Of a stretch of 32,000 nucleotides of DNA, positions 606 through 15,210 are shown piece by piece. The notes under the pieces were generated by a model. It had not been told where the DNA came from and searched no databases. It was given only the letters and a program-made list of their open reading frames with translations. How positions within the stretch are numbered: position 1 is the stretch's first letter; each line of letters begins with the position of its first letter. The DNA is from Nitrososphaera viennensis EN76 (lineage in GTDB: Archaea > Thermoproteota > Nitrososphaeria > Nitrososphaerales > Nitrososphaeraceae). The position numbers and the translations under genes were made by a program. Where the stretch lies: contig NZ_CP007536.1 of assembly GCF_000698785.1 (NCBI RefSeq), positions 1,350,001-1,382,000 on the forward strand. Direction: 5' to 3'.

Positions 606-2039
606 ATGAAGAAATCATCGCTCTATAATCCCAAGCTGACAATCAAGGACTTTGCAGAGCTTGTTTCTTCGCAAAGCATTTCGTGCGAGGAACTTACGGA
701 GATAACGCTGGACAGGATCATGAAGCTGAACCCAAAGCTGAATGGCTTCATAACGATTCTGGAAGACTCGGCCAGGCGTGACGCCAGGGATGCAGATGCC
801 TTGATCAGACAGGGCAAGTACAAGGGGCCGCTCCATGGTATACCCATAAGCCTCAAGGACCTCATCTATATGAAGGGCGCTAGGAGTACGAGCGGTTCCA
901 AGATACTTGCGGATTTTGTGCCGGATTATGATTCAACAGTGGTGAGGAAGCTGAAGGAAGCCGGCGCAATAATAGTCGGGATGAACAACACCCACGAGTT
1001 TGCCTGTGGGATAACCAACATCAACCCGCACTACGGACCTTCAAAGAACCCCTGGGATGACAGCAGGATGTCCGGTGGCTCAAGCGGCGGCTCTGCAGTG
1101 GCAGTCAGCGCCGGCATGTCACTGGCGTCTATAGGCACCGACACTAGCGGTTCAATCAGAGTGCCGTCTTCCCTTTGTGGCGTATTTGGGCTCAAGCCCA
1201 CCTATGGTCGTGTGAGCAAGTACGGGGTAATGCCCCTTGCCCCATCAATAGACCATATCGGTCCAATATGCAGGAGCCCGTGGGACATTGCAGCAGTCAT
1301 GCAGCATATCGCAGGGTACGACAGCCATGACCCCGACAGTGCTAACGCACCTGTTCCCAGCTACACAGATGAAGTGGAAAAGACACAGGGGAAATTCCGC
1401 CTTGGCATCCCCAAGCAATTCTTCTTTGACATCATGGATCCAAAGGTCAAGCATGTATTCGACAGCTTTGTAGAAAGGGCGGAAAGCTACCAGATATCAT
1501 CATCTCGCGTCGACGTTGACGAGACCGACAAGATATACGAGACATGGCGGGCCATAAGGCTGGGCGAATCGGCTACAACCCACAGCGAATGGCTCCGGAC
1601 GCGGCATGACGACTATGGAAAGGATGTCGTAAAGATGCTTGATGATGGCCTCAAGATAACGGCTGTGCATTACATTAGCGCGCACAGGTGGCGCCAAGAA
1701 ATAAGAGAGGCCATCCTCAGAGCCATGAAGCCATATGACGCATTGCTTGTACCCACCACTGCAATTGCAGCTCCCCTGCTGAACCAGAGTACCGTGCACC
1801 TCGATGGCAAGGATATCGAGGTATACCCTGTCCTGAGCAGGCTGACCACGGTATTTGACGTGACTGGCCTCCCTGCGCTCAACGTTCCCGCCGGCTTGGT
1901 AGACAACAGGCTGCCGGTGGGCGTCCAGCTTGTTGGAAGGCCGTTTGACGAAGCGCGACTTCTCCAGATCGCAGAAAGGTACGATCAGCAATACCACGTT
2001 TCAGAAGAGATGGTTCCGGCCCTTAACGTGACAATCTAG
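606..2039 (+). CDS. Amidase-signature family amidase (GatA-like)
   Basis: 477 aa with the amidase signature GGSSGGSAVAVSAGMSLASIGTDTSGSIRVPSSLCGVFGLKPTYGRVS and a typical length. Substrate cannot be assigned from sequence. Confidence 0.9.
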   Translation: MKKSSLYNPKLTIKDFAELVSSQSISCEELTEITLDRIMKLNPKLNGFITILEDSARRDARDADALIRQGKYKGPLHGIPISLKDLIYMKGARSTSGSKILADFVPDYDSTVVRKLKEAGAIIVGMNNTHEFACGITNINPHYGPSKNPWDDSRMSGGSSGGSAVAVSAGMSLASIGTDTSGSIRVPSSLCGVFGLKPTYGRVSKYGVMPLAPSIDHIGPICRSPWDIAAVMQHIAGYDSHDPDSANAPVPSYTDEVEKTQGKFRLGIPKQFFFDIMDPKVKHVFDSFVERAESYQISSSRVDVDETDKIYETWRAIRLGESATTHSEWLRTRHDDYGKDVVKMLDDGLKITAVHYISAHRWRQEIREAILRAMKPYDALLVPTTAIAAPLLNQSTVHLDGKDIEVYPVLSRLTTVFDVTGLPALNVPAGLVDNRLPVGVQLVGRPFDEARLLQIAERYDQQYHVSEEMVPALNVTI

Positions 2040-2285
2040 CTAGCCTGACTGCTTTTTCAACTTTTCATTTACGGAATAAACGGCGAAGCTGGCAAGAACT
2101 GCCACAGCGGCTGCCAGCACCCAGACCTCCTTGAGCGTCACGAGGTTTACCACCACAAACATTGCGGCAAGCGCGGCAATATTGATTATTATCAGCCGTC
2201 GCTTCATCTTTGGCCTGCCGCGTTCTGGAAGCATGTAAGAATTTGAGATAATCGGGTTTAAGCTTAGTTCACATGCCATGCGCAA
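2040..2285 (-). CDS. Small hydrophobic membrane protein (hypothetical); the more likely start is the ATG at 2207
   Basis: From the internal Met the ORF reads MKRRLIIINIAALAAMFVVVNLVTLKEVWVLAAAVAVLASFAVYSV, giving two predicted TM helices. It lies directly downstream of the binding-protein gene on the same strand. No family was recognised. Confidence 0.4.
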   Translation of the reverse strand: MRMACELSLNPIISNSYMLPERGRPKMKRRLIIINIAALAAMFVVVNLVTLKEVWVLAAAVAVLASFAVYSVNEKLKKQSG

Positions 2286-2327
2286 AATTGCATGTCACAA
2301 AAGAGCAGTTAATAAAAAGAAGGAAGG

Positions 2328-3785
2328 CTAGAGCCTTCCAAGTCCTATCGAGCTTCCCCTAAAGCGGGCAAGCCCGATTATCGCGACGAGCGAGGCTGCA
2401 AGCAACAAGGCCGCCATCACGCCGAATTCAGGCACGACGTTTGTGCCATAAACATCAACCGACGTGCTGCCGTCAGGCACGGTGAACTTGATGTGCGTCT
2501 CGGCGTCCGTAGAGCTGATGGTTACAAACTGCACATCCGTGCTTCCCGCTTTTACCATGGATATGCCGCTTATCATGCTAGTTGGCAGCTTTAGCTCCAC
2601 GTCTCCTCCCTTGTCGAACTTGACATTCACCGACTTGTTGTTAGGGTTTACCGTGACGCTCGTCACCTTGCTTTGCGGAGATATTCCGGTCACGCTATAG
2701 CTCGTGCCGTCGAGCTGAACAGTCACGCCGATGTCGCTTGTTGCCGCGTACCTTTCCGGCACGGCTATTTTCTTGTCTATCACGTCTTGCGTCAGTTGCG
2801 ACAGCCGTGCTTTCACGTCTGCAGGCACCTTGCCGTCTAGGCTGTGGAACGGCGCCAGGTACACGATGCCGTCGCCCGGACCTCCTTTCTCGGCCTCTAT
2901 GCCGGGCTTGAACACCTTGCCTTCAAACTTGTCCTGCAGGACCATCTGCACGGCCTGGTCAAACGCCTTGTCTATGTCAAGCACGAATGACGTCAGCACG
3001 GTGTCCGGCGCCAGCCGGTTCTGGTCTGCAACTGCGCCAAACGCGTAAATCCCCTTTTCCTTGGCAGCCTCTATGACGCCGTGGCCCGACGTGTCTGCCA
3101 CATGGAACAAAAAGTCTGCACCGGCGTTAACTTGCGCTAGGCCTGCTTCTTTGCCCTTGGCAGGGTTGTCCCAGTCGCCCAGATAGGTTCCAATTACCTT
3201 GATGTTAGGATTGACATAGTGTGCGCCTTGCTTGTAACCCTCAAAGAGGTTGATGAGGTTCGGGTACTGATCCCCGCCTACATAGGCTATGGTGCCGGTC
3301 TTGTCCATGGTGGCAGCCAGCGCGCCCAGCAGGAACGTGCCTTCCTGCTGCATCGGGAAGATGGAGGCCACGTTCTGCGAGCTGACAAGTCCGGTGAACA
3401 CCACGAACTTGGTGTTTGGATAGTCCTTGCCCACCTTGACTGCCGGGTCTCCCCACTGGAACCCGTGCGCGATTATCAGGTCGTAGCCGTCATTCGCGTA
3501 CTGCCTTAATGTAGCTTCAATGTCCGGTATTGCAATGTTTTCAGCATAAGCCAGCTTGTACCCGTACTTACTCTCCAACAGTTTGCCTGCACTGTACGCA
3601 GTCGCCCCCCACCCTCCGTCGCTGAAAAGGGCGTCCGTGACGAGCGCTATCTTTAGCTGCTTTCCGCTACTCTGTGCAAAAGCTGTCTGCTGCACGGGAG
3701 CAACCAGCGCCAATGACATCAACACTACAGCCACCGCCGCTGCAATAGCCGTGGTCGATGTCAGTCGTTTGAAACAGGATTTCAT
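2328..3785 (-). CDS. BMP/PnrA-family ABC transporter substrate-binding protein with a C-terminal extra domain and PEFG-CTERM anchor
   Basis: The signal peptide ends ...TAFA/QSS. The type-I PBP core has BMP motifs (KIALVTDALFSDGGWG, GTIAYVGGDQ, FGAVADQN). Residues about 351-448 form a Ser/Thr/Val-rich region. The C-terminus is VVPEFGVMAALLLAASLVAIIGLARFRG, that is PEFG, a TM helix and a basic tail. Confidence 0.9.
   Translation of the reverse strand: MKSCFKRLTSTTAIAAAVAVVLMSLALVAPVQQTAFAQSSGKQLKIALVTDALFSDGGWGATAYSAGKLLESKYGYKLAYAENIAIPDIEATLRQYANDGYDLIIAHGFQWGDPAVKVGKDYPNTKFVVFTGLVSSQNVASIFPMQQEGTFLLGALAATMDKTGTIAYVGGDQYPNLINLFEGYKQGAHYVNPNIKVIGTYLGDWDNPAKGKEAGLAQVNAGADFLFHVADTSGHGVIEAAKEKGIYAFGAVADQNRLAPDTVLTSFVLDIDKAFDQAVQMVLQDKFEGKVFKPGIEAEKGGPGDGIVYLAPFHSLDGKVPADVKARLSQLTQDVIDKKIAVPERYAATSDIGVTVQLDGTSYSVTGISPQSKVTSVTVNPNNKSVNVKFDKGGDVELKLPTSMISGISMVKAGSTDVQFVTISSTDAETHIKFTVPDGSTSVDVYGTNVVPEFGVMAALLLAASLVAIIGLARFRGSSIGLGRL
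2827..3095. repeat. Block A: 269-bp perfect inverted repeat of 11404..11672
   Basis: Base-by-base comparison of 2827..3095 with the reverse complement of 11404..11672 found no mismatch (position x pairs with 14499-x). The first mismatches lie immediately outside both ends. Confidence 0.9.
3319..3664. repeat. Block B: 346-bp perfect inverted repeat of 11801..12146
   Basis: Base-by-base comparison of 3319..3664 with the reverse complement of 11801..12146 found no mismatch (position x pairs with 15465-x). The offset differs from block A by 966 nt, so the order of the blocks is swapped between the two loci. Confidence 0.9.
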
Positions 3786-3807
3786 ACCGAGAAGGTCATC
3801 GGTAAAT

Positions 3808-3855
3808 TATTATACTTTCTTACGTTATCTTGCAAAACTAATGATATATCATAAA
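3808..3855 (-). promoter_or_regulatory. Promoter/operator element upstream of the binding-protein gene, shared with 7613..7660
   Basis: On the + strand it reads TATTATACTTT-N25-ATATATCATAAA. The gene-proximal AT box (3808-3818) lies 23-33 nt upstream of the ATG at 3785. The ungapped alignment with 7613..7660 is identical at 37 of 48 positions, with identical spacing. Confidence 0.55.
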
Positions 3856-3988
3856 ATACACGCAAATCATATAGCACTGGTTGGCAGAAACCAAGATTTT
3901 TAGAACTGTCCAGTCACTTTCAAATTTCTTTCAGGTTACGGTTGCTTGCGGTTGAATTTTCTGTGTAGCTAGGCCGCCATGACGGCCG

Positions 3989-4924
3989 TCACCTTTGTCC
4001 CCTCTTGTACGGGATGGCCAGCGCGGCAGGCGCGCCGGTCTTCTTGTACATTCCGGCAAGGACTGCAATCGGGATCAGGTATGGAAGCATCAGGAGGAAC
4101 TGGAACGGCACCTGCACCCCTGTGGCCTGCAGCCCGAGCTGGAACGAGTCGACCATGCCGAATATGAATGCGCCGAGGGTAATCCAGTACGCCTTCCACC
4201 TCCCGAATATCACCAGCGCAAGTGCAATCCACCCGGCTCCCCCCGTGACGTTTTCAAGGAAATAGCCAGTCTGGACAAGCGAAAAGTAGGCGCCGCCTAC
4301 TCCTGCCAGGGCCCCTCCGATTATCAGTGTCAGGTAGCGTATGCGGTAAACGTTGACGCCGAGGGTGTCTGCCTGTTTTGGGTTCTCCCCGACCGTCCTT
4401 ATCTTGAGGCCCAGCTTTGTCTTGAAGATGAAATAATGAGTCAGGGGCACCAGCAGAAACGCAATGTATACGAGCGGGTCGTGGTTGAACAGAACAGGCC
4501 CGATGCCCGGAAGGTTCGAGAGCCCGGGTATGTCGATTTTTGGCATGAGTTCTACGCTTGGGGCGACTGTGCGGACGCCAAAAGCGAGCCTGTAGAGCAG
4601 CGCGGCAAGCCCTGTTCCAAGCAGCCATATTGCCAAGCCGGCTGCAAGCTGGTTGGTCCGGATGGTGATGCTCATGAACCCCATGAGGATCGCAAGGGCT
4701 GCCGCTCCTACGATTGCCATCAGGATTCCGACGACATAGTTCCCGGTCAGGTACGTGCCCATGAAGCCGGTAAATGCGCCAATCAGCATCATCCCCTCAA
4801 CCCCCAGGTTCAAAACGCCAGAGCGCTCTGCAATCTTTTCACCCAGCGCGGCAAAGAGGATGGGAATGCTCAGACGGATGCCCGATACTATGATGCCGAT
4901 GATAATCGCCTCTTCGCCGGCCAT
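3989..4924 (-). CDS. ABC transporter permease (BMP/nucleoside-type importer)
   Basis: 311 aa and polytopic. Its start overlaps the upstream permease stop by 1 nt (TAATG). Confidence 0.9.
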   Translation of the reverse strand: MAGEEAIIIGIIVSGIRLSIPILFAALGEKIAERSGVLNLGVEGMMLIGAFTGFMGTYLTGNYVVGILMAIVGAAALAILMGFMSITIRTNQLAAGLAIWLLGTGLAALLYRLAFGVRTVAPSVELMPKIDIPGLSNLPGIGPVLFNHDPLVYIAFLLVPLTHYFIFKTKLGLKIRTVGENPKQADTLGVNVYRIRYLTLIIGGALAGVGGAYFSLVQTGYFLENVTGGAGWIALALVIFGRWKAYWITLGAFIFGMVDSFQLGLQATGVQVPFQFLLMLPYLIPIAVLAGMYKKTGAPAALAIPYKRGQR

Positions 4925-5991
4925 TAGCGCGCACCCCCCTTTTTCCTCATGCCAAGCCAGATTACAAATAGCTCGCCGACCAGCACGAACACAAGCACAA
5001 GGGCTTGCAGCGTCATGGAAAACGCGCTGGGCACACCGATGCTCCTGTACATGGTTTCAGAGCCTGTCATCAGGGCAGAGAAAAAGAAGGCCACTATGGC
5101 CACACCCAACGGATGCTGCCTTCCAAGTAGGGCTATTATGACGGCCACAAAGCCATAACCGGGCGAGATCCCCTCTATCAGGATATGCTGCACGCCAGAA
5201 ACGAGCAGGCCGCCGGCAATCCCGGCCAGGCCGCCGCTTATGCCCAGCGTGATGAAAACGCTCTTTGTGATGTTCATCCCGGCATAGCGTGCCGCCTTGA
5301 TGTTTGCGCCGACGCTCCTTATCTCGAATCCTATCTTGGTCTTCCAGAGGTAGTAGACCCCGACAGTCGCAAGGGCGGCTATGAAAATGCCGGCATGAAG
5401 GCGCGTGCCGGGAAAAACTATTGGCATCTGTGACGCGTCGGATATTTCCGGGGAGTACGGGTTAAAGCCGGGCGCCTTGATCGGCCCGTGCAGCAGGAAC
5501 GATATAAAGAGGAGCGCGACAAAGTTCAGGAGCACGGTCGAGATGACCTCGTTCACGCCGAACTTGACCTTGAGGGCGGCCGGGACAAGGGCATAGAGCG
5601 CGCCGAAAATAAAACTCAGGACGATTGCGGCAAGGATAGCAAGGCCAGGGACCGAGCCCAAAAGAGAGATCCCGACAAGGGTGCCTCCGAGGGCGCCCAT
5701 GTACAGCTGGCCCTCCGCCCCGATGTTCCATTGCCTGCACTTGAACGCAACAGAGACGGCCAGCCCGGTCAAGAGAAGCGAAATGGTCTTTAGCATCACA
5801 TCCCCAAACCCGAAGACATTGCCAAAGGCCCCCTGGAACATTATGGCATAAGCCTTTCCGACATCCACGCCGGTGGAGCCCAGTATGATGGCGCCCACGA
5901 CAAAAGCCAGGCTTGCGGACAGGAAAGGAACAAAGAACTTGACGTCTCTGACCTTCTCCCGCGTCTGATAGAATATGCTTGCGACGCTCAT
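4924..5991 (-). CDS. ABC transporter permease (BMP/nucleoside-type importer)
   Basis: 355 aa and polytopic. It has an ATGA start/stop overlap with the ATPase gene at 5988-5991. Confidence 0.9.
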   Translation of the reverse strand: MSVASIFYQTREKVRDVKFFVPFLSASLAFVVGAIILGSTGVDVGKAYAIMFQGAFGNVFGFGDVMLKTISLLLTGLAVSVAFKCRQWNIGAEGQLYMGALGGTLVGISLLGSVPGLAILAAIVLSFIFGALYALVPAALKVKFGVNEVISTVLLNFVALLFISFLLHGPIKAPGFNPYSPEISDASQMPIVFPGTRLHAGIFIAALATVGVYYLWKTKIGFEIRSVGANIKAARYAGMNITKSVFITLGISGGLAGIAGGLLVSGVQHILIEGISPGYGFVAVIIALLGRQHPLGVAIVAFFFSALMTGSETMYRSIGVPSAFSMTLQALVLVFVLVGELFVIWLGMRKKGGAR

Positions 5992-7523
5992 ACCGTCCCC
6001 TCCTTCGGGATTGCCTTTCTGCCCCCCATCAACAGGCCGAGGTAATCCACGTCGGCGTCCTTTCTGTCCACCACGTCCATTATCTTGCCTTCGTAAATCA
6101 CGGCAATGCGGTCGCAGACTGTCAGTATCTCGTCCAGGTCGAGCGAAATCATCAGGACGCCCACGCCGTTGTCGCGCTGTTTCACCAGCTGCTTGTGGAT
6201 GTATTCTGTCGCGCCGATGTCAAGGCCTCTGGTCGGGTTGTGCACGACTAGAACCTTGGGATTTCTGGCAAGCTCCCTTGCCATCAGCACCTTTTGCAAG
6301 TTTCCGCCCGACATCGAGTTTACGGGGACGTTTATCCCTGCCGTCTTTACTTCAAAATCAGACACCACGTTTTGCGCGAACTTTTTCATCTTTTCCTGTT
6401 TCAGAAATATCCTGCCGGAGTATTCGCCTGTATACCACCTGTCCAGGATGAGGTTTTCGGCAATAGAGTACTCCAGAATGAGCCCCGTGTCAAGCCTGTC
6501 CTGCGGAACATAAGCAAGGCCCCATTCCCTGATCTTTCTTGGCGGCAGGTTTGCCACGGACTTTCCGTCCATGATTATTTCGCCGGCCTGCACCTTTCTC
6601 AGTCCTGCTATCACTTCGGCAAGCTCGGTCTGGCCGTTTCCGTCGACGCCGGCTATGCCAAGGATTTCCCCCTTGCGGAGCTCAAACGACAGGTCTTTCA
6701 GGTACATTATGTTCACGTTGTTGAGCGCCGAGATGTTTTTCAGCTGCAGGACAGCGCCCCGCCCGCCGGATGGCCGGGGTTCCATGCTCTCTATCACAGG
6801 GCGGCCGACCATCATCTTGGCAAGCTCGGTCTCGCTGGTTTCAGAGGTCTTGATGGTTCCGACCACCTTGCCGCCACGCAGCACAGTGACCCTCGTGCTT
6901 GCCTCCATGACTTCGTGGAGCTTGTGGGTGATGAATATTATGGAAAGCCCCTGCTTCACCATGGATTCAAGCGTTGCAAACAGCGCTTTTTCTTCCTGTG
7001 GGGTGAGCATACCTGTGGGCTCGTCAAGGATCAGGATGTCGACGTCCCTGTAGAGCGCCTTGATTATTTCGACGCGCTGCTGCTCCCCCACTGCCAGGTT
7101 GCCCACTATGGCCTTTGGGTCTACCTTGAGCCCGTACTTTTCAGACAGCTGGGTTATCTTTTTTTCAGCGCCTGCCAAGTCCAAGAACAGCCCCTTGGAC
7201 TTTAGGCCCACGATGACGTTTTCCGTGACGGTGTGCGGGAGCGTGAGCAGAAAGTGCTGGTGCACCATCGCAATCCCAAGCTCAAGGGCGTCGTTTGGCG
7301 ATTTAATGTCGGTTTTCTTTCCTTTCACGTAAACCTCGCCTGCCTGAGGCTGGTACAGCCCGTAAAGGATGCTCATGAGCGTGGACTTGCCGGCGCCGTT
7401 TTCTCCCAAGAGCGCATGAATCTCGCCTTTTGACAGCTCGAAATCGACGCTGTCGTTTGCCACCACGTCCCCGAACCTGATGGTGATCCCCTTCATCTGC
7501 ACGATAGGCTCGCCAGCAGTCAC
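5988..7523 (-). CDS. ABC transporter ATP-binding protein with two fused ATPase domains
   Basis: 511 aa with Walker A GENGAGKST, signature LAVGEQQRVEI and Walker B ILILDEPT. The second domain has GVDGNGQTEL, MSGGNLQKV and VLVVHNPTRGLD. The listed start is GTG at 7523; the ATG at 7496 (MKGITIRFG) is an alternative. Confidence 0.9.
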   Translation of the reverse strand: MTAGEPIVQMKGITIRFGDVVANDSVDFELSKGEIHALLGENGAGKSTLMSILYGLYQPQAGEVYVKGKKTDIKSPNDALELGIAMVHQHFLLTLPHTVTENVIVGLKSKGLFLDLAGAEKKITQLSEKYGLKVDPKAIVGNLAVGEQQRVEIIKALYRDVDILILDEPTGMLTPQEEKALFATLESMVKQGLSIIFITHKLHEVMEASTRVTVLRGGKVVGTIKTSETSETELAKMMVGRPVIESMEPRPSGGRGAVLQLKNISALNNVNIMYLKDLSFELRKGEILGIAGVDGNGQTELAEVIAGLRKVQAGEIIMDGKSVANLPPRKIREWGLAYVPQDRLDTGLILEYSIAENLILDRWYTGEYSGRIFLKQEKMKKFAQNVVSDFEVKTAGINVPVNSMSGGNLQKVLMARELARNPKVLVVHNPTRGLDIGATEYIHKQLVKQRDNGVGVLMISLDLDEILTVCDRIAVIYEGKIMDVVDRKDADVDYLGLLMGGRKAIPKEGTV

Positions 7524-7612
7524 GGAAGGTCGGGCCCCGCTGTTGCAGGCATGCCGCCTTCCTGCCGCCGGGCAGAACTATTTGGCAACAGCAAAATGTA
7601 TCTGCGTGAAAG

Positions 7613-7660
7613 TATTATACTTTGGTACATCTTCTCAAAATAATAATCATATATCATAAA
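7613..7660 (-). promoter_or_regulatory. Promoter/operator element upstream of the ATPase-permease operon, shared with 3808..3855
   Basis: It has the same TATTATACTTT-N25-ATATATCATAAA architecture, located 90-137 nt upstream of the GTG at 7523. Confidence 0.5.
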
Positions 7661-7797
7661 GTTCCAAATAATGCATAGACTGTTCCGAGGAAAGTTGCAG
7701 GAATTTCCTCTTTCCACCTGCAACATGAACATATCGCAAGGTGACGTGGTAAAAGTCGCATGAAAGCCCAAGCGATCATGAAGATATTTGCTGTTTG

Positions 7798-7813
7798 CAG
7801 GCGCGCCCGCCTG
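7798..7813. promoter_or_regulatory. GC-rich inverted repeat CAGGCG-cgcc-CGCCTG (candidate operator half of a pair)
   Basis: It shares the 10-mer CAGGCGCGCC with 7884..7893. It stands out in an otherwise AT-rich divergent intergenic region. Confidence 0.4.
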
Positions 7814-7865
7814 TATCACAGATTTTCAATAAAATTATTTATGCCCTGGCGGGCAAATTTTTTGA

Positions 7866-7880
7866 TTTATACTTAAATAT
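7866..7880 (+). promoter_or_regulatory. TATA-like box for the fdrA operon
   Basis: TTTATACTTAAATAT lies 33-47 nt upstream of the fdrA ATG (7913). Confidence 0.4.
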
Positions 7881-7883
7881 TCA

Positions 7884-7895
7884 CAGGCGCGCCTG
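7884..7895. promoter_or_regulatory. Perfect 12-bp palindrome CAGGCGCGCCTG between the TATA-like box and the fdrA start (candidate operator)
   Basis: The sequence is self-complementary. It sits where archaeal repressors typically occlude the transcription start. Confidence 0.45.
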
Positions 7896-7912
7896 AACTT
7901 GGCGCAAGATGC

Positions 7913-9556
7913 ATGTCAGGCCACGACATATTCCACATAGCCATACGACAGAACTTTTACCGTGACTCCATGCAGCTGCTAAAGATTTCTGATAGCACGA
8001 GGCGCGCTAGCAGGGGAGTCGTGGAAGCCTCTGTGATAATGGCCACTGCCACCAACAAGGAGATACTCATGCGCCGGGGCTTCCGGCCGTCTGCGGTCAA
8101 CGAGGCCCAAGAGTCGGACATCATTATAGCCATCAGGGCCGGCGACGAGGAGGCAGTAAGGCTGGCGCTTTTGGAGGCAGACAGGCTGCTTGAATCCCCA
8201 CAGGGCGCTTCAAGGCAGGACGAGCACAAGGCCGGCGACCTGGACTCGGCCCTGAGATCCATGCCGGACGCTAACCTTGCGCTCGTATCTATCCCCGGCG
8301 ACCATGTCAGAGAGGTCTCGCTGATGCTTGTCGAGCGTGGAGTGCACCAGCAGATATTCAGCGACCACGTCCCAGTTGAGGACGAGCTAGAGATCAAGAC
8401 GCAGGCTGCAGGCAAGGGAGTGCTGGTACTTGGGCCCGGCGCCGGGACTTCTATAATCAACGGCAAGGGAATCGGGTTTTCAAACGCCGTCAGGATCGGT
8501 CCTGTAGGCATAGTGGCGGCGGCAGGTACGGGGCTGCAAGAAGTCTCCACCCTGCTAGACCATTCGGGCATCGGCGTAAAATATGGCCTTGGCGTTGGAG
8601 GCAACGACCCCAAGGACAAGATAGGCGGAATAATGATGATGCAGTGCATCAAGATCCTGGAAAGCTATGCCGACATCAAAGTCGTCGGCATCGTTTCAAA
8701 GCCGCCGTCCCCGTCGGTGCAGGAAAAAATTGAAGACTATATCGCCAGGGACGGAAAGAAAAAGTACGTGCTGGCGTTCATAGGCGGAGCCAAGAGCGAA
8801 AAGAAAAGCGACAGGATAACCAGGGTCAACACCCTGGCGTCGGCGGTCCTTGCAACTGCCAGGCAGCTTGGAAAGGAGCAGATCGCGCAGGCAGTCGCGC
8901 AGACCTACATCCCGCCGGAAAAATTGCTGGCCCTCTTGGAAGGCGAATGGACCAAGCTGGCCCAAGGACAAAAGCGCATCAGGGCGCTCTACACCGGAGG
9001 GACTTTTACCTACGAGGCAGAGGTGATTCTCGGCTCCATACTACAAGGCGAACCCATCTATTCCAATTCTCCCATCATGGACATAAAGCAGCTTGACGAT
9101 TCGTTCAAGAGCCAGGAGACCTCGATTGTTGACCTCGGGGAGGAGGAATTCACAAGGGGCAGGCCTCACCCCATGATCGACCCGACCATAAGGCGGTTCA
9201 GGATAGCAGAGGAGGCGGCCGACCCGGACGTCGCCGTGCTCCTGATGGATTTTGTACTCGGGTACGGCTCCCACCCGGACCCTGTCGGCGCGGTCCTGAA
9301 CGAGATAAGCGATGCCAAGCGCGCCGCGGAAAAAGCAGAGAGGCACCTGTGCGTGATAGCCCATGTCTGCGGCACTTCAGGCGACCTCCAGGGATACGCC
9401 CAGAGCATCGAAAAGCTGACGCGTGCAGGCTGCGTGGTTTTGCCTACAAACGCCATGGCCGCGGTGGCTTCTGCCGTAGTTGCCCGGCGGGGCAAGGTGG
9501 ATATTGATAGAATCTATGCGCAGTACCTGACTGTGGACGGAGGCTCAATGAAGTGA
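7913..9556 (+). CDS. fdrA: FdrA-family protein (succinyl-CoA-synthetase-alpha-like; E. coli FdrA/YahF homolog)
   Basis: 547 aa. The N-terminus (IAIRQNFYRDSMQLLKIS...VIMATATNKEILMRRGF) parallels the FdrA N-terminus as I recall it. It has CoA-ligase-like Gly-rich segments and sits next to DUF2877, carbamate kinase and DUF1116 genes. Confidence 0.85.
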   Translation: MSGHDIFHIAIRQNFYRDSMQLLKISDSTRRASRGVVEASVIMATATNKEILMRRGFRPSAVNEAQESDIIIAIRAGDEEAVRLALLEADRLLESPQGASRQDEHKAGDLDSALRSMPDANLALVSIPGDHVREVSLMLVERGVHQQIFSDHVPVEDELEIKTQAAGKGVLVLGPGAGTSIINGKGIGFSNAVRIGPVGIVAAAGTGLQEVSTLLDHSGIGVKYGLGVGGNDPKDKIGGIMMMQCIKILESYADIKVVGIVSKPPSPSVQEKIEDYIARDGKKKYVLAFIGGAKSEKKSDRITRVNTLASAVLATARQLGKEQIAQAVAQTYIPPEKLLALLEGEWTKLAQGQKRIRALYTGGTFTYEAEVILGSILQGEPIYSNSPIMDIKQLDDSFKSQETSIVDLGEEEFTRGRPHPMIDPTIRRFRIAEEAADPDVAVLLMDFVLGYGSHPDPVGAVLNEISDAKRAAEKAERHLCVIAHVCGTSGDLQGYAQSIEKLTRAGCVVLPTNAMAAVASAVVARRGKVDIDRIYAQYLTVDGGSMK

Positions 9557-9562
9557 TGACGC

Positions 9563-9742
9563 ATGGGTAGCGAGGAGCGCGCAAGGAAACTTTTGGACTC
9601 GGAGCTCAAGGTCATCAACTTGGGCCTAGACGTTTTTTACAGTTCGCTAGAGATGCAGAACGTCAAGGTGATAAATGTGGACTGGAAGCCCGCCCCCAAG
9701 CTTGACGAGGAGTCTGAAGACATCTTGGACAAGATACTGTGA
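9563..9742 (+). CDS. Small 59-aa ORF resembling the N-terminal extension of long-form DUF1116 (YahG-type) proteins
   Basis: ATG at 9563, TGA at 9740-9742, sequence MGSEERARKLLDSELKVINLGLDVFYSSLEMQNVKVINVDWKPAPKLDEESEDILDKIL. It is below the ORF-track length cutoff. It fills the fdrA-DUF2877 gap exactly, 6 nt after the fdrA stop and 6 nt before the next start. The VINxGlxxFxxxLxxQxVxVxxxDWxP pattern matches my recollection of the YahG N-terminus. Confidence 0.5.
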   Translation: MGSEERARKLLDSELKVINLGLDVFYSSLEMQNVKVINVDWKPAPKLDEESEDILDKIL

Positions 9743-9748
9743 GGCACT

Positions 9749-10729
9749 TTGAAAGTCGAACCCCTGCCAAGTGTAGAGCCGGCCGTTTTTCAATGCAGTT
9801 CCATTGGCAGCGTCCACGGCACGCTGGCGCAAAGCCAAGGCAGGATAGGCAGGGTGATAAACGTCTTTGACACCACTATCAACATCCGCACAGACGGTGA
9901 CGAGCTTTTGGTTCTCACGCTGGGCAAGACGAAGTCGCCCATAAACGTGAATGTTGTCGGTGCCGGGCCGGCGCACAGTACGGGGTTTGCAGGCTTGGCA
10001 AGGCAGGGCAGCGACGCCGTGAGGACAAAGTGCGCCGGAAGGACAATGATCCAGGCCGGCAGGGTGCTAGTATCAATTGATAGGCAGGATATCTTTCAAA
10101 ATTCGCTGGATGAACCGGCGGCAGAGGCGCTGCGCACATTTGCGAGTGCAAGCGGCAGGGTGTCGTCGGCGCTTGCAGGCGAGGCGGAAAAAGGGAGGAC
10201 CGGCTGCCTGCTCAGGCCGGACATCACCACAGCGGGCCTGCTCAACGCGTTTTCTGGCCGGCTTTTGTCTGGCTGGTGCGACACGCAGGACGGCATGGCA
10301 GAGGCGCTTGCGGGATTGTGTGGGAGGGGGCCGGGGTTTACCCCTGCCGGCGACGACTTTATCGCAGGGTACCTTGCGATGTTCAACTGGCTTTGCAGCG
10401 CCCTGGAACTTGGACCCCCCATAATCCCCGGCGGCGAATTTTTGCGCCTGACCACCTGGACGAGCTTTAAACTGATGGAGTACAGCGCAAGAGACCTGCT
10501 TGACGAGCAGGCGCAGTCGATGCTCAATTCCGTGGCAGGAGGCAGGGCGGATGATTACGTCCGGTGCATCGAGGTCATTGGCAAGCGGGGCCACACCTCC
10601 GGCATCGATTTTGCCACCGGCGCCACGTTTGGCCTGTACACCGTCGCGGACAGCGTGTGCGGGACGAGAAGCCTCGGCGACATTTCAGGCCGCCTAGGCA
10701 TAACCTCATCAGGCCCGCAATTATCATAA
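9749..10729 (+). CDS. DUF2877-family protein (E. coli YlbF/YahE homolog)
   Basis: 326 aa with the GRGPGFTPAGDDFIAGYL motif typical of the family, in cluster context. The listed start is TTG. Confidence 0.7.
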   Translation: MKVEPLPSVEPAVFQCSSIGSVHGTLAQSQGRIGRVINVFDTTINIRTDGDELLVLTLGKTKSPINVNVVGAGPAHSTGFAGLARQGSDAVRTKCAGRTMIQAGRVLVSIDRQDIFQNSLDEPAAEALRTFASASGRVSSALAGEAEKGRTGCLLRPDITTAGLLNAFSGRLLSGWCDTQDGMAEALAGLCGRGPGFTPAGDDFIAGYLAMFNWLCSALELGPPIIPGGEFLRLTTWTSFKLMEYSARDLLDEQAQSMLNSVAGGRADDYVRCIEVIGKRGHTSGIDFATGATFGLYTVADSVCGTRSLGDISGRLGITSSGPQLS

Positions 10730-10779
10730 CTTGCGAATTCTAGCATATCTAAAATTGCTGCATGGCAAACTGAACTATG

Positions 10780-10789
10780 TTTATATAAT
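10780..10789 (+). promoter_or_regulatory. TATA box for the carbamate kinase gene
   Basis: TTTATATAAT is centred about 25 nt upstream of the first in-frame start (TTG at 10810). The only nearby ATG (10796) is out of frame. Confidence 0.5.
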
Positions 10790-10809
10790 TTTTCAATGGC
10801 AAGATTTCC

Positions 10810-12720
10810 TTGCAACAAATCCAGACCGTTGTCATTGCACTCGGCGGAAACGCGCTGTTAAAGCGCGACGACAAGGGAACTTTTGCGGAGCAGTTTGCCA
10901 ACGTCCAGGCGGCGGCAAAGGGAATAGCCGACCTTTTGCAGAAAGGGTACAGGGTGGTGCTCACCCACGGAAACGGCCCCCAGGTCGGGGCGACCGTGCT
11001 GAGGCACGAAGCGGCCAAGAACACGGTTCCCCCGTTCCCGCTTTACGCCTGCAATGCGGAAACGCAGGGGATGATAGGCTACATGGTCGTGCAGGGTCTC
11101 CAGAACGAGCTTGACGCAAGAGGCATCAAAAAATCAGTCGTTTCGCTGGTCACGAGGGTCGTGGTCAATCAGGCGGACCCTGCCTTCAAGAACCCGACCA
11201 AACCGGTCGGCCCATATTTCGAGAGGCATCAGTACCCGAACCTGCTCAACATTTTTGAGGGCTACAAGCAGGGAGCCAGGTACGTCAACCCGGACATCAG
11301 GGTGCTTGCGGCGTACCTCGGCGACTGGGACAGCCCCCTCAAGGGGAGGGAAGTTGCCATGGTGCAGATAGGCTCCGGGGCGGATGTTTTGCTTCACACC
11401 GCCGACACGTCGGGCCACGGCGTCATAGAGGCTGCCAAGGAAAAGGGGATTTACGCGTTTGGCGCAGTTGCAGACCAGAACCGGCTGGCGCCGGACACCG
11501 TGCTGACGTCATTCGTGCTTGACATAGACAAGGCGTTTGACCAGGCCGTGCAGATGGTCCTGCAGGACAAGTTTGAAGGCAAGGTGTTCAAGCCCGGCAT
11601 AGAGGCCGAGAAAGGAGGTCCGGGCGACGGCATCGTGTACCTGGCGCCGTTCCACAGCCTAGACGGCAAGGTCTCTGTGAAGGTAAAAAAGAAGCTGGAA
11701 GAGCTGACCCGGCGCATAATAAGCAAAGAGATAACCGTCCCTGAAAAGTACGAGGCGACCACCGACACTATAGCAGGGCAGGTGCCTTCTGCGCCGGCTA
11801 GAAAGCAGCTAAAGATAGCGCTCGTCACGGACGCCCTTTTCAGCGACGGAGGGTGGGGGGCGACTGCGTACAGTGCAGGCAAACTGTTGGAGAGTAAGTA
11901 CGGGTACAAGCTGGCTTATGCTGAAAACATTGCAATACCGGACATTGAAGCTACATTAAGGCAGTACGCGAATGACGGCTACGACCTGATAATCGCGCAC
12001 GGGTTCCAGTGGGGAGACCCGGCAGTCAAGGTGGGCAAGGACTATCCAAACACCAAGTTCGTGGTGTTCACCGGACTTGTCAGCTCGCAGAACGTGGCCT
12101 CCATCTTCCCGATGCAGCAGGAAGGCACGTTCCTGCTGGGCGCGCTTGCCGCAATGATGAGCAAGACGGGCATCATCGGGTACGTGGGGGGAGACCAGAT
12201 TGACAGGTTCATTGCCGACGACGTAAAATTCACCTTCAAGTACCAGGGGGACAGCAGGTACAGGAGGGTGGTGCCTTCCCCGAAACCCGTCGCAATACTG
12301 GAGCACCAGGCGATCCGCTTGCTGGCCGACGCGGGCTTTGTGGTGGTCGCCTGCGGCGGCGGTGGCATCCCCGTTATTGAAGTAGCAGGCGGCTGGAGTG
12401 GGGTTGACGCGGTCATAGACAAAGACCTTGCGGGCGAGAAGATGGCAAGGCAGATCGGGGCTGACAAGTTTGTCATCCTGACAGACGTGGACGGCCTGTA
12501 CATGGACTACAAGAAACCCACGCAGAGGCTGGTCAAGGAAGTCAGGGTCGGCCAGCCGGGAGCGGTCAACATTTCGCAGCTGGAGGAAGGGAGCATGGGG
12601 CCCAAGGTCGGCGCCTGCCTAGAGTTTGTGAGAAATGGCGGGAGGGAGGCTGTCATTGCTAGCCTTGATAGGCTCGTTGACGCGGTTGAGGGGCTGTCGG
12701 GAACCCACTTTTTCCCGTAG
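10810..12720 (+). CDS. Carbamate kinase with an in-frame inserted, circularly permuted BMP-type solute-binding domain
   Basis: Residues 1-141 (VVIALGGNALL, VLTHGNGPQVG, DPAFKNPTKPVGPYF) and 464-636 (RRVVPSPKP, VVACGGGGIPV, VDAVIDKDLAGEKMA, ILTDVDG, GSMGPKVGA) together make a colinear 314-aa carbamate kinase. Residues 142-463 are BMP-family sequence. The reading frame is uninterrupted. Confidence 0.85.
   Translation: MQQIQTVVIALGGNALLKRDDKGTFAEQFANVQAAAKGIADLLQKGYRVVLTHGNGPQVGATVLRHEAAKNTVPPFPLYACNAETQGMIGYMVVQGLQNELDARGIKKSVVSLVTRVVVNQADPAFKNPTKPVGPYFERHQYPNLLNIFEGYKQGARYVNPDIRVLAAYLGDWDSPLKGREVAMVQIGSGADVLLHTADTSGHGVIEAAKEKGIYAFGAVADQNRLAPDTVLTSFVLDIDKAFDQAVQMVLQDKFEGKVFKPGIEAEKGGPGDGIVYLAPFHSLDGKVSVKVKKKLEELTRRIISKEITVPEKYEATTDTIAGQVPSAPARKQLKIALVTDALFSDGGWGATAYSAGKLLESKYGYKLAYAENIAIPDIEATLRQYANDGYDLIIAHGFQWGDPAVKVGKDYPNTKFVVFTGLVSSQNVASIFPMQQEGTFLLGALAAMMSKTGIIGYVGGDQIDRFIADDVKFTFKYQGDSRYRRVVPSPKPVAILEHQAIRLLADAGFVVVACGGGGIPVIEVAGGWSGVDAVIDKDLAGEKMARQIGADKFVILTDVDGLYMDYKKPTQRLVKEVRVGQPGAVNISQLEEGSMGPKVGACLEFVRNGGREAVIASLDRLVDAVEGLSGTHFFP
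11404..11672. repeat. Block A copy (inverted repeat of 2827..3095)
   Basis: 269/269 identical to the reverse complement of 2827..3095. It encodes HGVIEAAKEKGIYAFGAVADQNRLAPDTVLTS...APFHSLDGKV. Confidence 0.9.
11801..12146. repeat. Block B copy (inverted repeat of 3319..3664)
   Basis: 346/346 identical to the reverse complement of 3319..3664. It encodes KQLKIALVTDALFSDGGWG...MQQEGTFLLGALA. Confidence 0.9.
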
Positions 12721-12825: not shown

Positions 12826-14088
12826 ATGGCAGAAGACATAAAGGTCAAAATCGAATCTGCAAACAAGGACGCAATACAAAAGGTTCTTTCCTCAAGACCC
12901 TTTCTTGTAGACGTCAGGCCCGCAATAGAAGTCCTGCCAGACATGAAAAAGAGGTCGATATTCCATGCAGGCCCGCCGGTGGACTGGAAGAGGATGTGCG
13001 GGCCCATGAAGGGGGCCGTGGTAGCCACCGTCATCTTTGAAAAGTGGGCCAACAGCTGGGACGAGGCTGCCAAACTGGTGGAGAGCGGAGAGGTCGAGCT
13101 TTCGCCCAACCACGACCACGACGCGGTGGGGCCCATGGCCGGCGTCATATCCCCCTCGATGCCGGTGTTTGTTGTCAGGAACGAAAAGCACGGCAACACC
13201 AACTACGGGAGGATAGTAGAGAACAAGGTTCAGTTCGGAGCCTACGACGCGCAGGCGATAGAATCGCTAGAGTTCTGGTCCACCGTCCTTGCGCCGGCAA
13301 TACGCAAGGCGCTTGAAAGGATCAAGCGGGCAGGCGACAAGGGCATAGACCTGAAATCCATCATGGCCAAGGCCCTGTACATGGGCGACGAGCTGCACAA
13401 CCGCCCGGTGGCAGGCACGGCACTCTTTGCAGTGGCCATAATGCCGCACATGGTGGAGACTGTGGAGAAGGAGCAGCTGATAAAGGTCATAGACTATTTT
13501 GCCGCAAACGAGATCTTCTTTTTGTGCCTGGCGATGGCCGCCTGCAAGGCCACCATGAACGCTGCTTCAAACATTGAACACAGCACCCTTGTAACGGCGA
13601 TGGCCCGCAACGGCACCGACTTTGGGATAAAGGTGAGCGGCCTTGGAAACCAGTGGTTCACCGGGCCGGCCGGGATGATACGCGGCATGTACTTTCCGGG
13701 ATTTGGCGACAAGGACGCCAACCCGGACATGGGAGACAGCGCGATAACAGAGACGGCAGGTGTCGGGGGCTTTGCGCTTGCCGACTCGCCGGCGATACTT
13801 TCGCTTGTCGGCGGGACCGCGGAGGACGCCCTAAAGTACACCAAGCAGATGCGCGAGATTACCATGGCATCAAACGACACCTTCCTCGTCCCCATATTTG
13901 ACTTCCAGGGCACGGGCACGGGAATAGACATCCGAAAGGTCGTGAAAACGGGCATACTGCCGGTGATCGACACCGCAATAGCCCACAGGGAGCCGGGGAT
14001 AGGCATGATAGGCGCCGGCCTTGTCAACCCGCCGATGGAGGCTTTCAAGGGTGCGCTTCGTGAATTCGCGCGCAAGTACAAGCTCTAG
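12826..14088 (+). CDS. DUF1116-family protein (E. coli YlbE/YahG homolog)
   Basis: 420 aa. HAGPPVDWKRMCGPMKGAV, SPNHDHDAVGPMAGV, NPDMGDSAITETAGVGGFA and NTAIAHREPGIGMIGAG closely parallel YlbE/YahG as I recall them. Confidence 0.85.
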   Translation: MAEDIKVKIESANKDAIQKVLSSRPFLVDVRPAIEVLPDMKKRSIFHAGPPVDWKRMCGPMKGAVVATVIFEKWANSWDEAAKLVESGEVELSPNHDHDAVGPMAGVISPSMPVFVVRNEKHGNTNYGRIVENKVQFGAYDAQAIESLEFWSTVLAPAIRKALERIKRAGDKGIDLKSIMAKALYMGDELHNRPVAGTALFAVAIMPHMVETVEKEQLIKVIDYFAANEIFFLCLAMAACKATMNAASNIEHSTLVTAMARNGTDFGIKVSGLGNQWFTGPAGMIRGMYFPGFGDKDANPDMGDSAITETAGVGGFALADSPAILSLVGGTAEDALKYTKQMREITMASNDTFLVPIFDFQGTGTGIDIRKVVKTGILPVIDTAIAHREPGIGMIGAGLVNPPMEAFKGALREFARKYKL

Positions 14089-14091
14089 GGG

Positions 14092-15210
14092 CTAGAACCT
14101 CTGAATGATGTTAAAGAAGGTGTCACGCTGCGCCGGCTCGCGCTTTATCTCGCGCACCATGCTTGCAAGCTCTTGCAAGGACGTCCCGCTTGCCTTTCCT
14201 GCCGCCTTGAATATCTCCTCTGAAAAGGCCGTTCCCACCATGTCGTTTCCGCCGTACGAAAGCGCGACCTGCGATATCTTTTTGCCAAGCGCCACCCAGT
14301 ACACCGAGATGTTCTTTAGCGTGTTTCCAAGCAAGAGCCTTGACACTGCTATCACGCGCAGGTCGTAAGGCGACGAGCTCTCGGATTTTATCATCTCCTT
14401 TTGCTCAAGTTCCGTGTTTTCAAGGCTGAACTTGAGCGGGATAAACGTCGTAAAGCCGCCGGTCTTTTTGTGCAGCTCGCGTATCTTGATGACGTGGTCA
14501 ACAATGTGCTCTGGTTTTTCAATGTGGCCAAAGAGCATCGTGCAGTTGCTGCGGATGCCAAGCTCGTGCGCCTGCCTTGCAGTGTCGAGCCACTCTTCGC
14601 CGGAGCACTTGCCTATCACTATTTTCTTGCGGGTGTCAGGATGGAATATCTCCGCCCCGCCTCCCGGGAGCGCGTCAAGGCCGGCAGCCTTTAATCGCAA
14701 GAGTACTTCTTTTACAGAGTTGCGTGTCAGGCGCGCGATAAAGAACACCTCGGCTGGGGTGAGCGCCTTTATAGTCACCTTTGGATGCTCGGACTTTATG
14801 GCGCGCATCATGTTTTCGTAATATTCAAGCCCCAGCTTGGGGTGAAAGCCGCCGACGATGTGGAGTTCGGTTGCTCCCATCTGCTCTATAGCTATCTTGG
14901 CCCTTGCGACAACCTGCTCGGTAGAAAGCGTGTAGGCGTCCTCCTCGTTGCCCTTGCGATAGAATGCGCACAATGGACAGCTGGCGGCGCACACGTTCGT
15001 GTAGTTGAGATAATAAGAAGCGACAAAGGTCACAGTGTTGCCGCACAGGTCGCGGCGCAGTCTGTCTGCAGCCGCGCCGAGCAGAAAGAGGTTTTCCTCG
15101 TTCATCAATTGAACGCCGTCCTCGTAGGACAGCTCCTCCTCTCCGGCAAGCGCCTTTTCAAGCGCCGGCGTCCCGCCGACCTTGCCAAAGGCGTCAGCTA
15201 TTGACTGCAA
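14092..15210 (-). CDS. Radical SAM enzyme of the MqnC/MqnE (futalosine pathway) / CofH-like family
   Basis: 372 aa with NYTNVCAASCPLCAFY (CxxxCxxC), a GGxHP motif and a C-terminal MqnC/CofH-type region. MqnC versus MqnE cannot be decided by eye. Confidence 0.8.
   Translation of the reverse strand: MQSIADAFGKVGGTPALEKALAGEEELSYEDGVQLMNEENLFLLGAAADRLRRDLCGNTVTFVASYYLNYTNVCAASCPLCAFYRKGNEEDAYTLSTEQVVARAKIAIEQMGATELHIVGGFHPKLGLEYYENMMRAIKSEHPKVTIKALTPAEVFFIARLTRNSVKEVLLRLKAAGLDALPGGGAEIFHPDTRKKIVIGKCSGEEWLDTARQAHELGIRSNCTMLFGHIEKPEHIVDHVIKIRELHKKTGGFTTFIPLKFSLENTELEQKEMIKSESSSPYDLRVIAVSRLLLGNTLKNISVYWVALGKKISQVALSYGGNDMVGTAFSEEIFKAAGKASGTSLQELASMVREIKREPAQRDTFFNIIQRF

Follow-up and report, generated by a model that had tools for sequence, protein, structure and literature searches.

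A carbamate kinase gene of the soil ammonia-oxidizing archaeon Nitrososphaera viennensis EN76 contains a circularly permuted copy of the binding domain of a nearby substrate-binding protein (SBP), which belongs to an ATP-binding cassette (ABC) importer. Sequence comparisons across related genomes suggest that, after a single old duplication, the two copies have very probably been made identical in part by interlocus gene conversion that recurred separately in different lineages. The analyzed DNA, called the window hereafter, is a 32,000-nucleotide (nt) stretch of the closed genome of a pure culture, in which about 8 kb separates the two inversely oriented genes. The binding protein encoded in the window is 100% identical to N. 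viennensis AIC15842.1, and the kinase protein is 100% identical to AIC15849.1 / UVS67838.1 (2.53-Mb contig). Both paralogs were compared in eight Nitrososphaeraceae genomes or contigs, comprising the window (W) and L001, L002, L075, L076, L078, L079 and L080; the contigs of L079 (1.7 Mb) and L080 (3.1 Mb) appear from their record names to be long-read assemblies.

Two blocks of perfect identity in diverged paralogs

The SBP gene and the kinase insert share two blocks of perfect inverted identity. Positions 2827..3095 equal the reverse complement of 11404..11672 (269/269), and positions 3319..3664 equal the reverse complement of 11801..12146 (346/346), exactly as reported in a preliminary description of this region. 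A repeat search showed that the blocks are nested in longer inverted homologies, one pairing 2732-3274 with 11225-11767 (543 nt, 83%) and the other pairing 3267-3664 with 11801-12198 (398 nt, 96%). The preliminary description had called the flanks of the blocks diverged, which was borne out, although its count of 38 identical residues out of 60 for the segment YPNL...ADTS became 39/60 upon recounting. It had also pointed to a linker with a sequence of its own, and such a linker indeed separates the two halves of the insert and lacks a counterpart in the transporter gene.

At the sharp boundaries of the blocks, nucleotide identity between the paralogs drops from 100% to about 66%. Codons outside the blocks are 66% identical at the nucleotide level, with a nonsynonymous divergence (dN) of 0.26 and a saturated synonymous divergence (dS) of 2.8, whereas inside the blocks we detected no differences and a dS of 0 (0.007 with slightly wider columns that include one mismatched flanking codon). 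In the columns of the N. viennensis blocks, the paralog pairs of L002 and L078, which are unconverted, are only 70-73% identical, and the probability that 615 nt stayed identical by descent is therefore approximately 1e-83 to 1e-94.

The blocks occur in swapped order in the two genes. The swap noted in the preliminary description is real, but its cause is not a recombination pattern: the order is swapped because the kinase insert is a circular permutation of the binding domain. Since the copy is permuted and the blocks are non-collinear, their presence implies at least two separate recent conversion events in N. viennensis.

A circularly permuted binding domain in the lid of a carbamate kinase

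Judged by its sequence, the 636-amino-acid (aa) fusion protein is an AllK-type carbamate kinase whose lid carries a permuted copy of the binding domain of the adjacent importer. It scored 301.7 bits against the NCBIfam carbamate kinase model NF009007 (cutoff, 266), and its aa 6-141 and 476-636 aligned to residues 4-141 and 153-314 of the P. furiosus carbamate kinase 1e19 (E=1e-77). The insert takes the place of approximately 11 residues in the protruding subdomain, which in carbamate kinases is a mobile lid with a lysine that contacts carbamoyl phosphate (PMC3474736). GGNA, HGNGPQVG, K131, GGGGIP, DKD, and GSMGPK are invariant in 67 aligned fusion proteins, which served as our sample for the invariance of residues and motifs.

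The insert matched Pfam Bmp (E=3e-54) in two stretches, with the halves of the profile in reversed order. Residues 13-160 of the AtzT chain are matched by kinase aa 323-466, and residues 159-319 of BmpA 9q1u by kinase aa 150-316. The insert thus starts with the second part of the domain (YPNL...VPEKY), continues through a linker of 12-16 aa and ends with the first part (KQLKIALV...GGDQ), and the permutation cut lies between Q173 and Y174 of the free-standing SBP. We attempted to model the fusion with AlphaFold2 using the 67-sequence alignment, but the model was poor, with a predicted local distance difference test (pLDDT) score of 64 and a predicted template modeling (pTM) score of 0.47. Because it is too poor for geometry or a fold search, the topology given here rests on the split alignments to solved structures.

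The free-standing SBP shows the family match, the canonical chain order and the signal peptide of Bmp/PnrA proteins. An N-terminal signal peptide precedes its binding domain (aa ~42-350), which is followed by a C-terminal extension and a PEF-CTERM-like anchor. Among solved structures, Lbp 7x0r, AtzT 6pi5 and Brucella Bmp 3s99 are closest to it. Unlike the SBP, the kinase insert lacks both the canonical Bmp chain order and export, being permuted, without a signal peptide and located inside a predicted cytoplasmic enzyme; the 636-aa kinase should be cytoplasmic because it has no signal peptide.

The databases disagree on the name of this gene, which NCBI labels 'BMP family ABC transporter substrate-binding protein' and UniRef and JGI label carbamate kinase. 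Neither name covers the inserted, permuted domain, and the kinase is misnamed. Other carbamate kinase fusions were also encountered, namely AllH-carbamate kinase and ornithine carbamoyltransferase-carbamate kinase (P0139, 598 aa; P0171, 637 aa). In P0139 and P0171, a producer and a consumer of carbamoyl phosphate are joined end to end.

Gene conversion recurs in related genomes at different positions

For the eight genomes, both paralogs were aligned over 303 codons after the insert had been un-permuted, and a Sawyer/GENECONV-type permutation test was performed on 569 polymorphic sites. The preliminary description had proposed an old paralog pair partly homogenized by recent gene conversion, and the checks that it suggested agree with this proposal. 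Sliding-window identity recovered the mosaic pattern, dS was saturated outside the blocks and zero inside them, and the permutation test with orthologs was significant in six of the eight genomes; clades defined by gene type, described below, are in line with these results. Rather than uniform divergence along the whole alignment, the related genomes displayed blocks of their own at other positions. Perfect or near-perfect tracts occupy columns 0-110 and 190-270 in N. viennensis, 60-100 in L001, 90-130 and 200-220 in L075, 60-110 and 260-300 in L076, 240-300 in L079, and 210-290 in L080. Exact runs reach 338 nt in the window (trimmed alignment; 346 in the genome) and 92, 166, 185, 158, and 282 nt in L001, L075, L076, L079, and L080, respectively.

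In the Sawyer-type test, the longest runs were 196 for W, 183 for L080, 108 for L079, 95 for L076, 88 for L075 and 46 for L001 (all P<1e-4). The 196 agreeing polymorphic sites of the window compare with a 99.9th percentile of 54, and control runs between the two gene types of different genomes reached at most 18. In columns 50-115 and 190-275, the nearest neighbor of a sequence is its own paralog in six of the eight genomes. Although L079 and L080 are closely related, each resembles its own paralog more than its ortholog. In the block columns of N. viennensis, orthologs have dS values of 1.1-1.7 versus 0 for the paralogs, and dS is saturated for the paralog pairs of L002 and L078.

One part of the domain has stayed outside this process. 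Nucleotide identity in columns 130-170 is 57-82% in all eight genomes, and the ~60 codons that follow the permutation cut are free of identity blocks in every one of them. Clustering in columns 115-190 is mostly by gene type, with L075 as an exception. In a neighbor-joining tree of the never-converted segment, the transporter-type and fusion-type sequences form monophyletic sister clades, and the SBPs from genomes with a plain kinase fall outside both. These clades predate all eight genomes compared, and type-specific residues are found in the same segment at I/L134, N/S163, G/A171, and F/L183. For the 346-nt block, the kinase copy has Y and E where other fusions have C and D, which identifies the transporter gene as the donor.

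Predicted ligand contacts and a possible gate on the kinase

AtzT contacts its ligand through Tyr45, Ser97/Phe98, Glu165, Trp194, Asn218, and Asn220 (PMC6834077). By alignment, these positions map to W59, G108/F109, N176, W205, D231, and S233 of the SBP. The corresponding fusion residues W349, G398, F399, N144, W173, D199, and S201 are invariant in 67/67 fusions, and the transporter SBPs compared have the same predicted contacts, except for Phe instead of Trp at 205 in three. Given this conservation, the embedded domain appears to keep the pocket of the transporter. The predicted pocket appears to combine an aromatic sandwich with polar contacts, an arrangement suited to a planar nitrogen-rich ring or a ureide, and the ligand is probably not guanine because N176, D231, and S233 differ from E165, N218, and N220 of AtzT.

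N176 is the third residue after the permutation cut and two positions from the splice, which would place the connection to the kinase lid at the pocket. If the embedded domain still binds the ligand imported by the transporter, a clamshell closing on that ligand inside a lid that must itself close over carbamoyl phosphate could plausibly form an allosteric gate on the kinase. We tentatively propose, as a possibility that falls somewhat short of probable, that the fusion is a natural ligand-gated kinase in which the imported compound would turn on or off the final step of a ureide pathway, the one that yields ATP and ammonia, and in which conversion would keep sensor and importer tuned alike.

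The preliminary description had gone further and suggested that conversion serves to keep the ligand-contacting parts of sensor and transporter identical. In that form the suggestion was not supported: tract positions vary, the contacts are conserved in converted and unconverted segments, and L002 and L078 are without blocks.

Counterevidence and alternative explanations

Several observations weigh against recurrent conversion or against the proposed gate. L002 had no conversion signal (P=0.52) and L078 had no blocks and a marginal signal only (P=0.018), so conversion is not universal. The 269-nt block was checked for type-diagnostic residues and none were present, so that the donor assignment is limited to the 346-nt block. 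The N. viennensis blocks were checked indirectly, via the identical protein in two GenBank deposits that are possibly not independent. The geometry of the insert relative to the active site is not fixed by the poor AlphaFold2 model, and conversion need not be adaptive because the predicted contacts are conserved with or without it.

The last point bears on an alternative that we consider unlikely but deserving of attention, in which selection favors conversion because it passes specificity changes of the transporter to the intracellular sensor, so that sensing and uptake co-evolve. Persistence of the process across the whole clade and donation of the 346-nt block by the transporter gene would suit such selection, as would the finding that long-lasting concerted evolution is rare in prokaryotes and that genes sharing a pathway or complex are overrepresented among its cases (PMC6053082). 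However, the contacts are invariant or conservatively substituted, leaving no visible specificity change to propagate, and the segment that bears N176 and W205 has no identity block in any genome. The places of the tracts vary as well, and the genes are intact both in L002, which escaped conversion, and in L078, which nearly did. We therefore lean towards conversion as a largely neutral, self-sustaining process, because the contacts are conserved regardless of it and because L002 escaped fully and L078 nearly.

Other explanations dispense with conversion altogether. A single recent duplication, followed by very fast divergence near the junctions under positive selection with the blocks as the parts not yet changed, would account for diverged parts that adjoin the kinase junctions, where adaptation is plausible, and for their dN of 0.21-0.43. 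It is scarcely credible, however, because the diverged parts are saturated at synonymous sites, identities of 68-81% mark the fusion family as old, the sister clades of the two gene types predate the eight genomes, block positions vary by genome, and orthologs in the block columns have a dS above 1 where the paralogs are identical. The preliminary description had likewise judged one recent duplication the poorer explanation, and the saturated dS, the old gene-type clades and the shifting block positions uphold that judgment. Also very improbable is an assembly or polishing artefact, in which paralogs diverged throughout would have had their reads cross-mapped or collapsed into one consensus. 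Assemblers do have trouble with perfect repeats 269 and 346 nt long, metagenome contigs stop near the domain and chimera-like contigs exist; yet the mosaic is found at different positions in five other independent assemblies, including two megabase contigs, its boundaries between 100% and about 66% identity are sharp, the N. viennensis genome is closed and from a pure culture, and the identical protein is present in two GenBank deposits. Two further candidates were rejected: purifying selection alone, as the identity extends to synonymous sites, and horizontal replacement from a third source, as each genome's block matches its own paralog best.

A different question is whether the blocks also mediate inversion. 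The preliminary description had regarded them as substrates for an inversion of about 8 kb and as an assembly hazard, and both concerns proved well founded, since public contigs carry the exact inversion-type junction and contigs of metagenome-assembled genomes (L005-L008) end at or near the repeated domain. The 775-aa protein P0270 (L081), in the 90% cluster of the N. viennensis SBP, derives from ENA ERZ1760262 NODE_2388 (2907 nt, 2.6x coverage). From nt 22 on, L081 is 100% identical to window positions 10326..12146 followed by 2254..3318 in reverse complement, which is precisely what a crossover within the 346-nt block would produce. The protein of L081 is a chimera that runs from the 5' part of the kinase through this block into the 3' part of the SBP. 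P0073 (L082, 3.6x coverage) has the same junction type in another population, and P0068-P0072 and P0074, on other Nitrososphaeraceae metagenome contigs, have the reciprocal type. On a JGI 3300071358 contig of 11,282 nt, the whole intervening segment is inverted relative to allG, the other end stops in the repeat, and the ATPase gene is split into open reading frames (ORFs) of 201 aa and 342 aa. The N. viennensis junction of linker and block had no match among the scanned JGI metagenome contigs.

These contigs could mean that a reversible 8-kb inversion by homologous recombination turns the pathway off and on, with the recombinant contigs as real isoforms, and both the occurrence of the two reciprocal junction types and the 11.3-kb contig with its fully inverted segment speak for such a switch. 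Nevertheless, the gene order on the contigs is what a real inversion and an assembler chimera would both give, and the same sequence results when a de Bruijn assembler leaves an inverted repeat on the wrong side. The two ENA contigs have coverages of only 2.6x and 3.6x, gene order is normal in the complete genome and in the megabase contigs, and both products of an inversion are nonsensical chimeras. Neither a recombinase gene nor a specific site came to notice in the window or related loci, although no search aimed at them was made. We thus consider a recombinational switch improbable and assembler chimeras more likely than real isoforms as the source of the recombinant contigs. In practice, the repeats break up or scramble short-read assemblies of this locus, from which organic-nitrogen use by soil nitrifiers is now being inferred.

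Origin of the fusion and proposed course of events

Many other Nitrososphaeraceae (L011-L013, L033, L037, L041, L043, L059, L063, and L064) carry both operons as well, but with a plain kinase and with the SBP gene first, in the order [AllG-CK-AllH-AllF] | [SBP-ATPase-P1-P2], where CK is the plain carbamate kinase. This is likely the ancestral arrangement. In genomes with the fusion, the SBP gene is the last of the operon and is preceded by a separate copy of a promoter-like stretch. The near-palindrome ATGATATATCAT is common to both copies of this 52-nt stretch in the window (Table 1) and occurs nowhere else in it, with 0.02 occurrences expected by chance. The repeat is probably a duplicated promoter or operator, which would fit relocation of the SBP gene together with its promoter.

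A profile-free search of 1.84 billion representatives recovered the fusion architecture in a single 50%-identity cluster, with P0063 as the only end-to-end relative. At 90% identity the family splits into approximately 80 clusters, whose named members all belong to the Nitrososphaerales, and identity across many lineages is 68-81%. The proteins P0153, P0156, P0164 and P0262, tried as distant permuted kinase fusions, were rejected because they are tandem Bmp-Bmp(-Bmp) proteins instead; they are secreted, have short linkers and contain two Bmp copies (P0153, P0156, and P0262) or three (P0164).

We propose that the SBP domain was copied once, at the base of a Nitrososphaera-centered clade. A tandem SBP-SBP intermediate, for which the tandem Bmp proteins offer a possible model, is plausible; in that case the permuted domain would consist of the end of copy 1, the linker and the start of copy 2, excised together and placed in the mobile lid of a carbamate kinase that belongs to an allFGHK-type cluster. 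Stretches similar enough to pair would then have been overwritten repeatedly, and independently in each lineage, by non-reciprocal homologous recombination, while the segment beside the permutation cut, adjacent to the kinase, would have stayed distinct. A crossover in place of conversion would invert 8 kb and destroy both genes. Conversion would persist where identity stays high, and selection, the edge of homology, or the two together would keep it away from the junctions. It would incidentally keep sensor and transporter alike.

Gene neighborhood

The features of the two operons and of the repeated domain are listed in Table 1. The kinase is co-located with homologs of AllF, AllG, and AllH, and this gene order is kept in five further loci (among L075-L080). 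These homologs are predicted to form an oxamate carbamoyltransferase that would supply the kinase with carbamoyl phosphate. A cluster of oxamate carbamoyltransferase and catabolic carbamate kinase has been characterized in E. coli (PMC11326118, PMC9843812), and a 2025 survey found allFGHK-type genes in ammonia-oxidizing archaea including N. viennensis (PMC12625717). A gene of 57-72 aa occupies the position of the 59-aa ORF in L075, L076, L078, L079, and L080.

Next to the importer, 606..2039 (+) encodes an AtzE-family-like amidase with a score under the NCBIfam cutoffs. It matches the 'gatA-like' amidohydrolase that adjoins biuret and oxalurate genes in ammonia-oxidizing archaea (PMC12625717). 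On the other side of the kinase, 14092..15210 (-) and 15300..16427 (+) are divergent genes for MqnC/MqnE-like radical S-adenosylmethionine proteins. In L075, a UbiD-family gene follows such a pair, and the window ORF at the equivalent position is 17409..18866 (-). The pair and the UbiD-family gene look like menaquinone genes of the futalosine pathway; menaquinone-type genes flank the cluster in some relatives (L075) and are absent there in others. Farther away, a 130-aa ORF at 24243..24635 (+) has a signal-peptide-like start and three repeats of ~32 aa (24357..24633) that are extremely rich in Asp, Asn, and His and contain paired Cys (NNYHDDDNDDKDVIVCILKNNNDDDHYWSSY). Its product may be a secreted metal-binding protein.

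Table 1. Features of the importer operon, the kinase fusion and the all cluster in the window.
Feature	Position	Strand	Remarks
Bmp/PnrA-type extracellular SBP gene, 485 aa	2328..3785	-	Pfam Bmp (PF02608), E=6e-56
Identity block 2, transporter copy	2827..3095	-	aa D231 to K319
Diverged segment between blocks	3096..3318	-	aa 158-230; spans cut/re-join position of kinase copy
Identity block 1, transporter copy	3319..3664	-	aa K42 to ~A156; first part of N-domain and first helix of C-domain
Promoter-like stretch, 52 nt	3804..3855	-	just upstream of SBP gene; 77% identical to 7609..7660
ABC importer permeases (two)	4924..5991 and 3989..4924	-	Pfam BPD_transp_2
ABC importer ATPase	5988..7523	-	Pfam ABC_tran
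Promoter-like stretch, second copy	7609..7660	-	upstream of ATPase gene
AllF/FdrA-like gene	7913..9556	+	Pfam, FdrA-type coenzyme A ligase
Conserved 59-aa ORF between AllF-like and AllH-like genes	9563..9742	+	no family match on record
AllH-like gene	9749..10729	+	Pfam
Carbamate kinase with inserted binding domain, 636 aa	10810..12720	+	Pfam AA_kinase and Bmp
Kinase N-terminal part, aa 1-141	10810..11232	+	ends 11 residues past lid lysine K131
Circularly permuted Bmp domain, aa 142-468	11233..12213	+	split alignments and codon alignment after un-permuting
Identity block 2, kinase-insert copy	11404..11672	+	aa 199-288
Linker from old C-terminus to old N-terminus of binding domain	11767..11802	+	no homolog in transporter gene
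Identity block 1, kinase-insert copy	11801..12146	+	aa 332-445; transporter-type residues Y, E present
Kinase C-terminal part, aa 469-636	12214..12720	+	rest of lid; GGGGIP, DKD, GSMGPK motifs
AllG-like subunit gene	12826..14088	+	Pfam AllG, E=3e-80

Comparison with known systems

The tufA and tufB genes of Salmonella and E. coli are a classical case of concerted evolution by gene conversion. Conversion has also been described for the duplicated mtrA of methanogens (PMC4632066), and 26 long-lasting cases of concerted evolution in prokaryotes have been catalogued (PMC6053082). The genes described here resemble these cases in that paralogs are closer to each other than orthologs are, synonymous sites included, in the mosaic tracts, in the recurrence of conversion and in their membership in one pathway, and they resemble tufA/tufB in their inverted orientation, which makes a crossover an inversion. 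They differ in that one partner is permuted and embedded in an unrelated enzyme, with the homology reduced to two non-collinear pieces that are bounded by non-homologous DNA and that each convert alone. The catalogue of the 26 cases has no mention of carbamate, substrate-binding, ABC transporter, Nitrososphaera or Thaumarchaeota (PMC6053082), and our literature search found no precedent for conversion between a gene and its permuted, enzyme-embedded copy. The recombination process, interlocus gene conversion, is thus known, and what is new is the permuted, embedded partner together with a protein architecture that has not been described. The case shows conversion acting independently on two non-collinear pieces of homology, and a boundary kept beside the domain junctions for the lifetime of the clade.

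In the sap locus of Campylobacter fetus, a RecA-dependent inversion proceeds via homologous gene segments. As at sap, inverted homologous segments flank a segment of several kb that carries a promoter. Unlike at sap, where inversion yields alternative functional proteins, inversion here would yield two non-functional chimeras and is itself a candidate only.

The kinase shares with E. coli AllK/YbcF its AllF, AllH, and AllG neighbors, the carbamate kinase fold and the catalytic motifs, and a Bmp-type ABC importer adjoins the cluster as in known allFGHK systems. E. coli AllK and many Nitrososphaeraceae kinases have no insert, unlike the 636-aa fusion. The survey of ammonia-oxidizing archaea lists allK and bmpA-nupABC as separate genes, and the words 'fusion' and 'fused' are absent from its text (PMC12625717). 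Among Bmp/PnrA proteins of cluster B-I, which include AtzT 6pi5 (guanine or 2-hydroxyatrazine as ligand), the adenine-binding Brucella protein 3s99 and T. pallidum PnrA 2fqw, the closest parallels are the Bmp fold, the aromatic sandwich (W59/W205 versus Y45/W194 of AtzT) and homologous polar positions; unlike these proteins, the kinase copy is permuted and predicted to be cytoplasmic.

The nearest functional parallel would be with engineered switches, such as those made from maltose-binding protein and beta-lactamase or from binding proteins and circularly permuted green fluorescent protein (PMC3265398, PMC6335823) and a chimera of xylanase and xylose-binding protein (PMC4896006). Our literature search found no description of the kinase-SBP architecture, of its concerted evolution or of a natural switch so built. 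As in the engineered proteins, insertion rather than end-to-end linkage connects an enzyme with a clamshell-type binding protein, and circular permutation makes new termini. A permuted SBP with its new ends at the predicted pocket and its position in a catalytic lid would match the design rules of such switches. Should this interpretation be correct, the locus would provide both a built-in genetic mechanism for the co-evolution of uptake and sensing and a natural counterpart of the engineered switches, testable in a cultured ammonia oxidizer, N. viennensis EN76. Whereas ligand binding is coupled to activity in the engineered switches, coupling in the N. viennensis kinase is suggested by its architecture. 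Unlike the engineered constructs, the fusion is natural, is represented by approximately 80 sequence clusters, and has the binding protein as the permuted, inserted partner.

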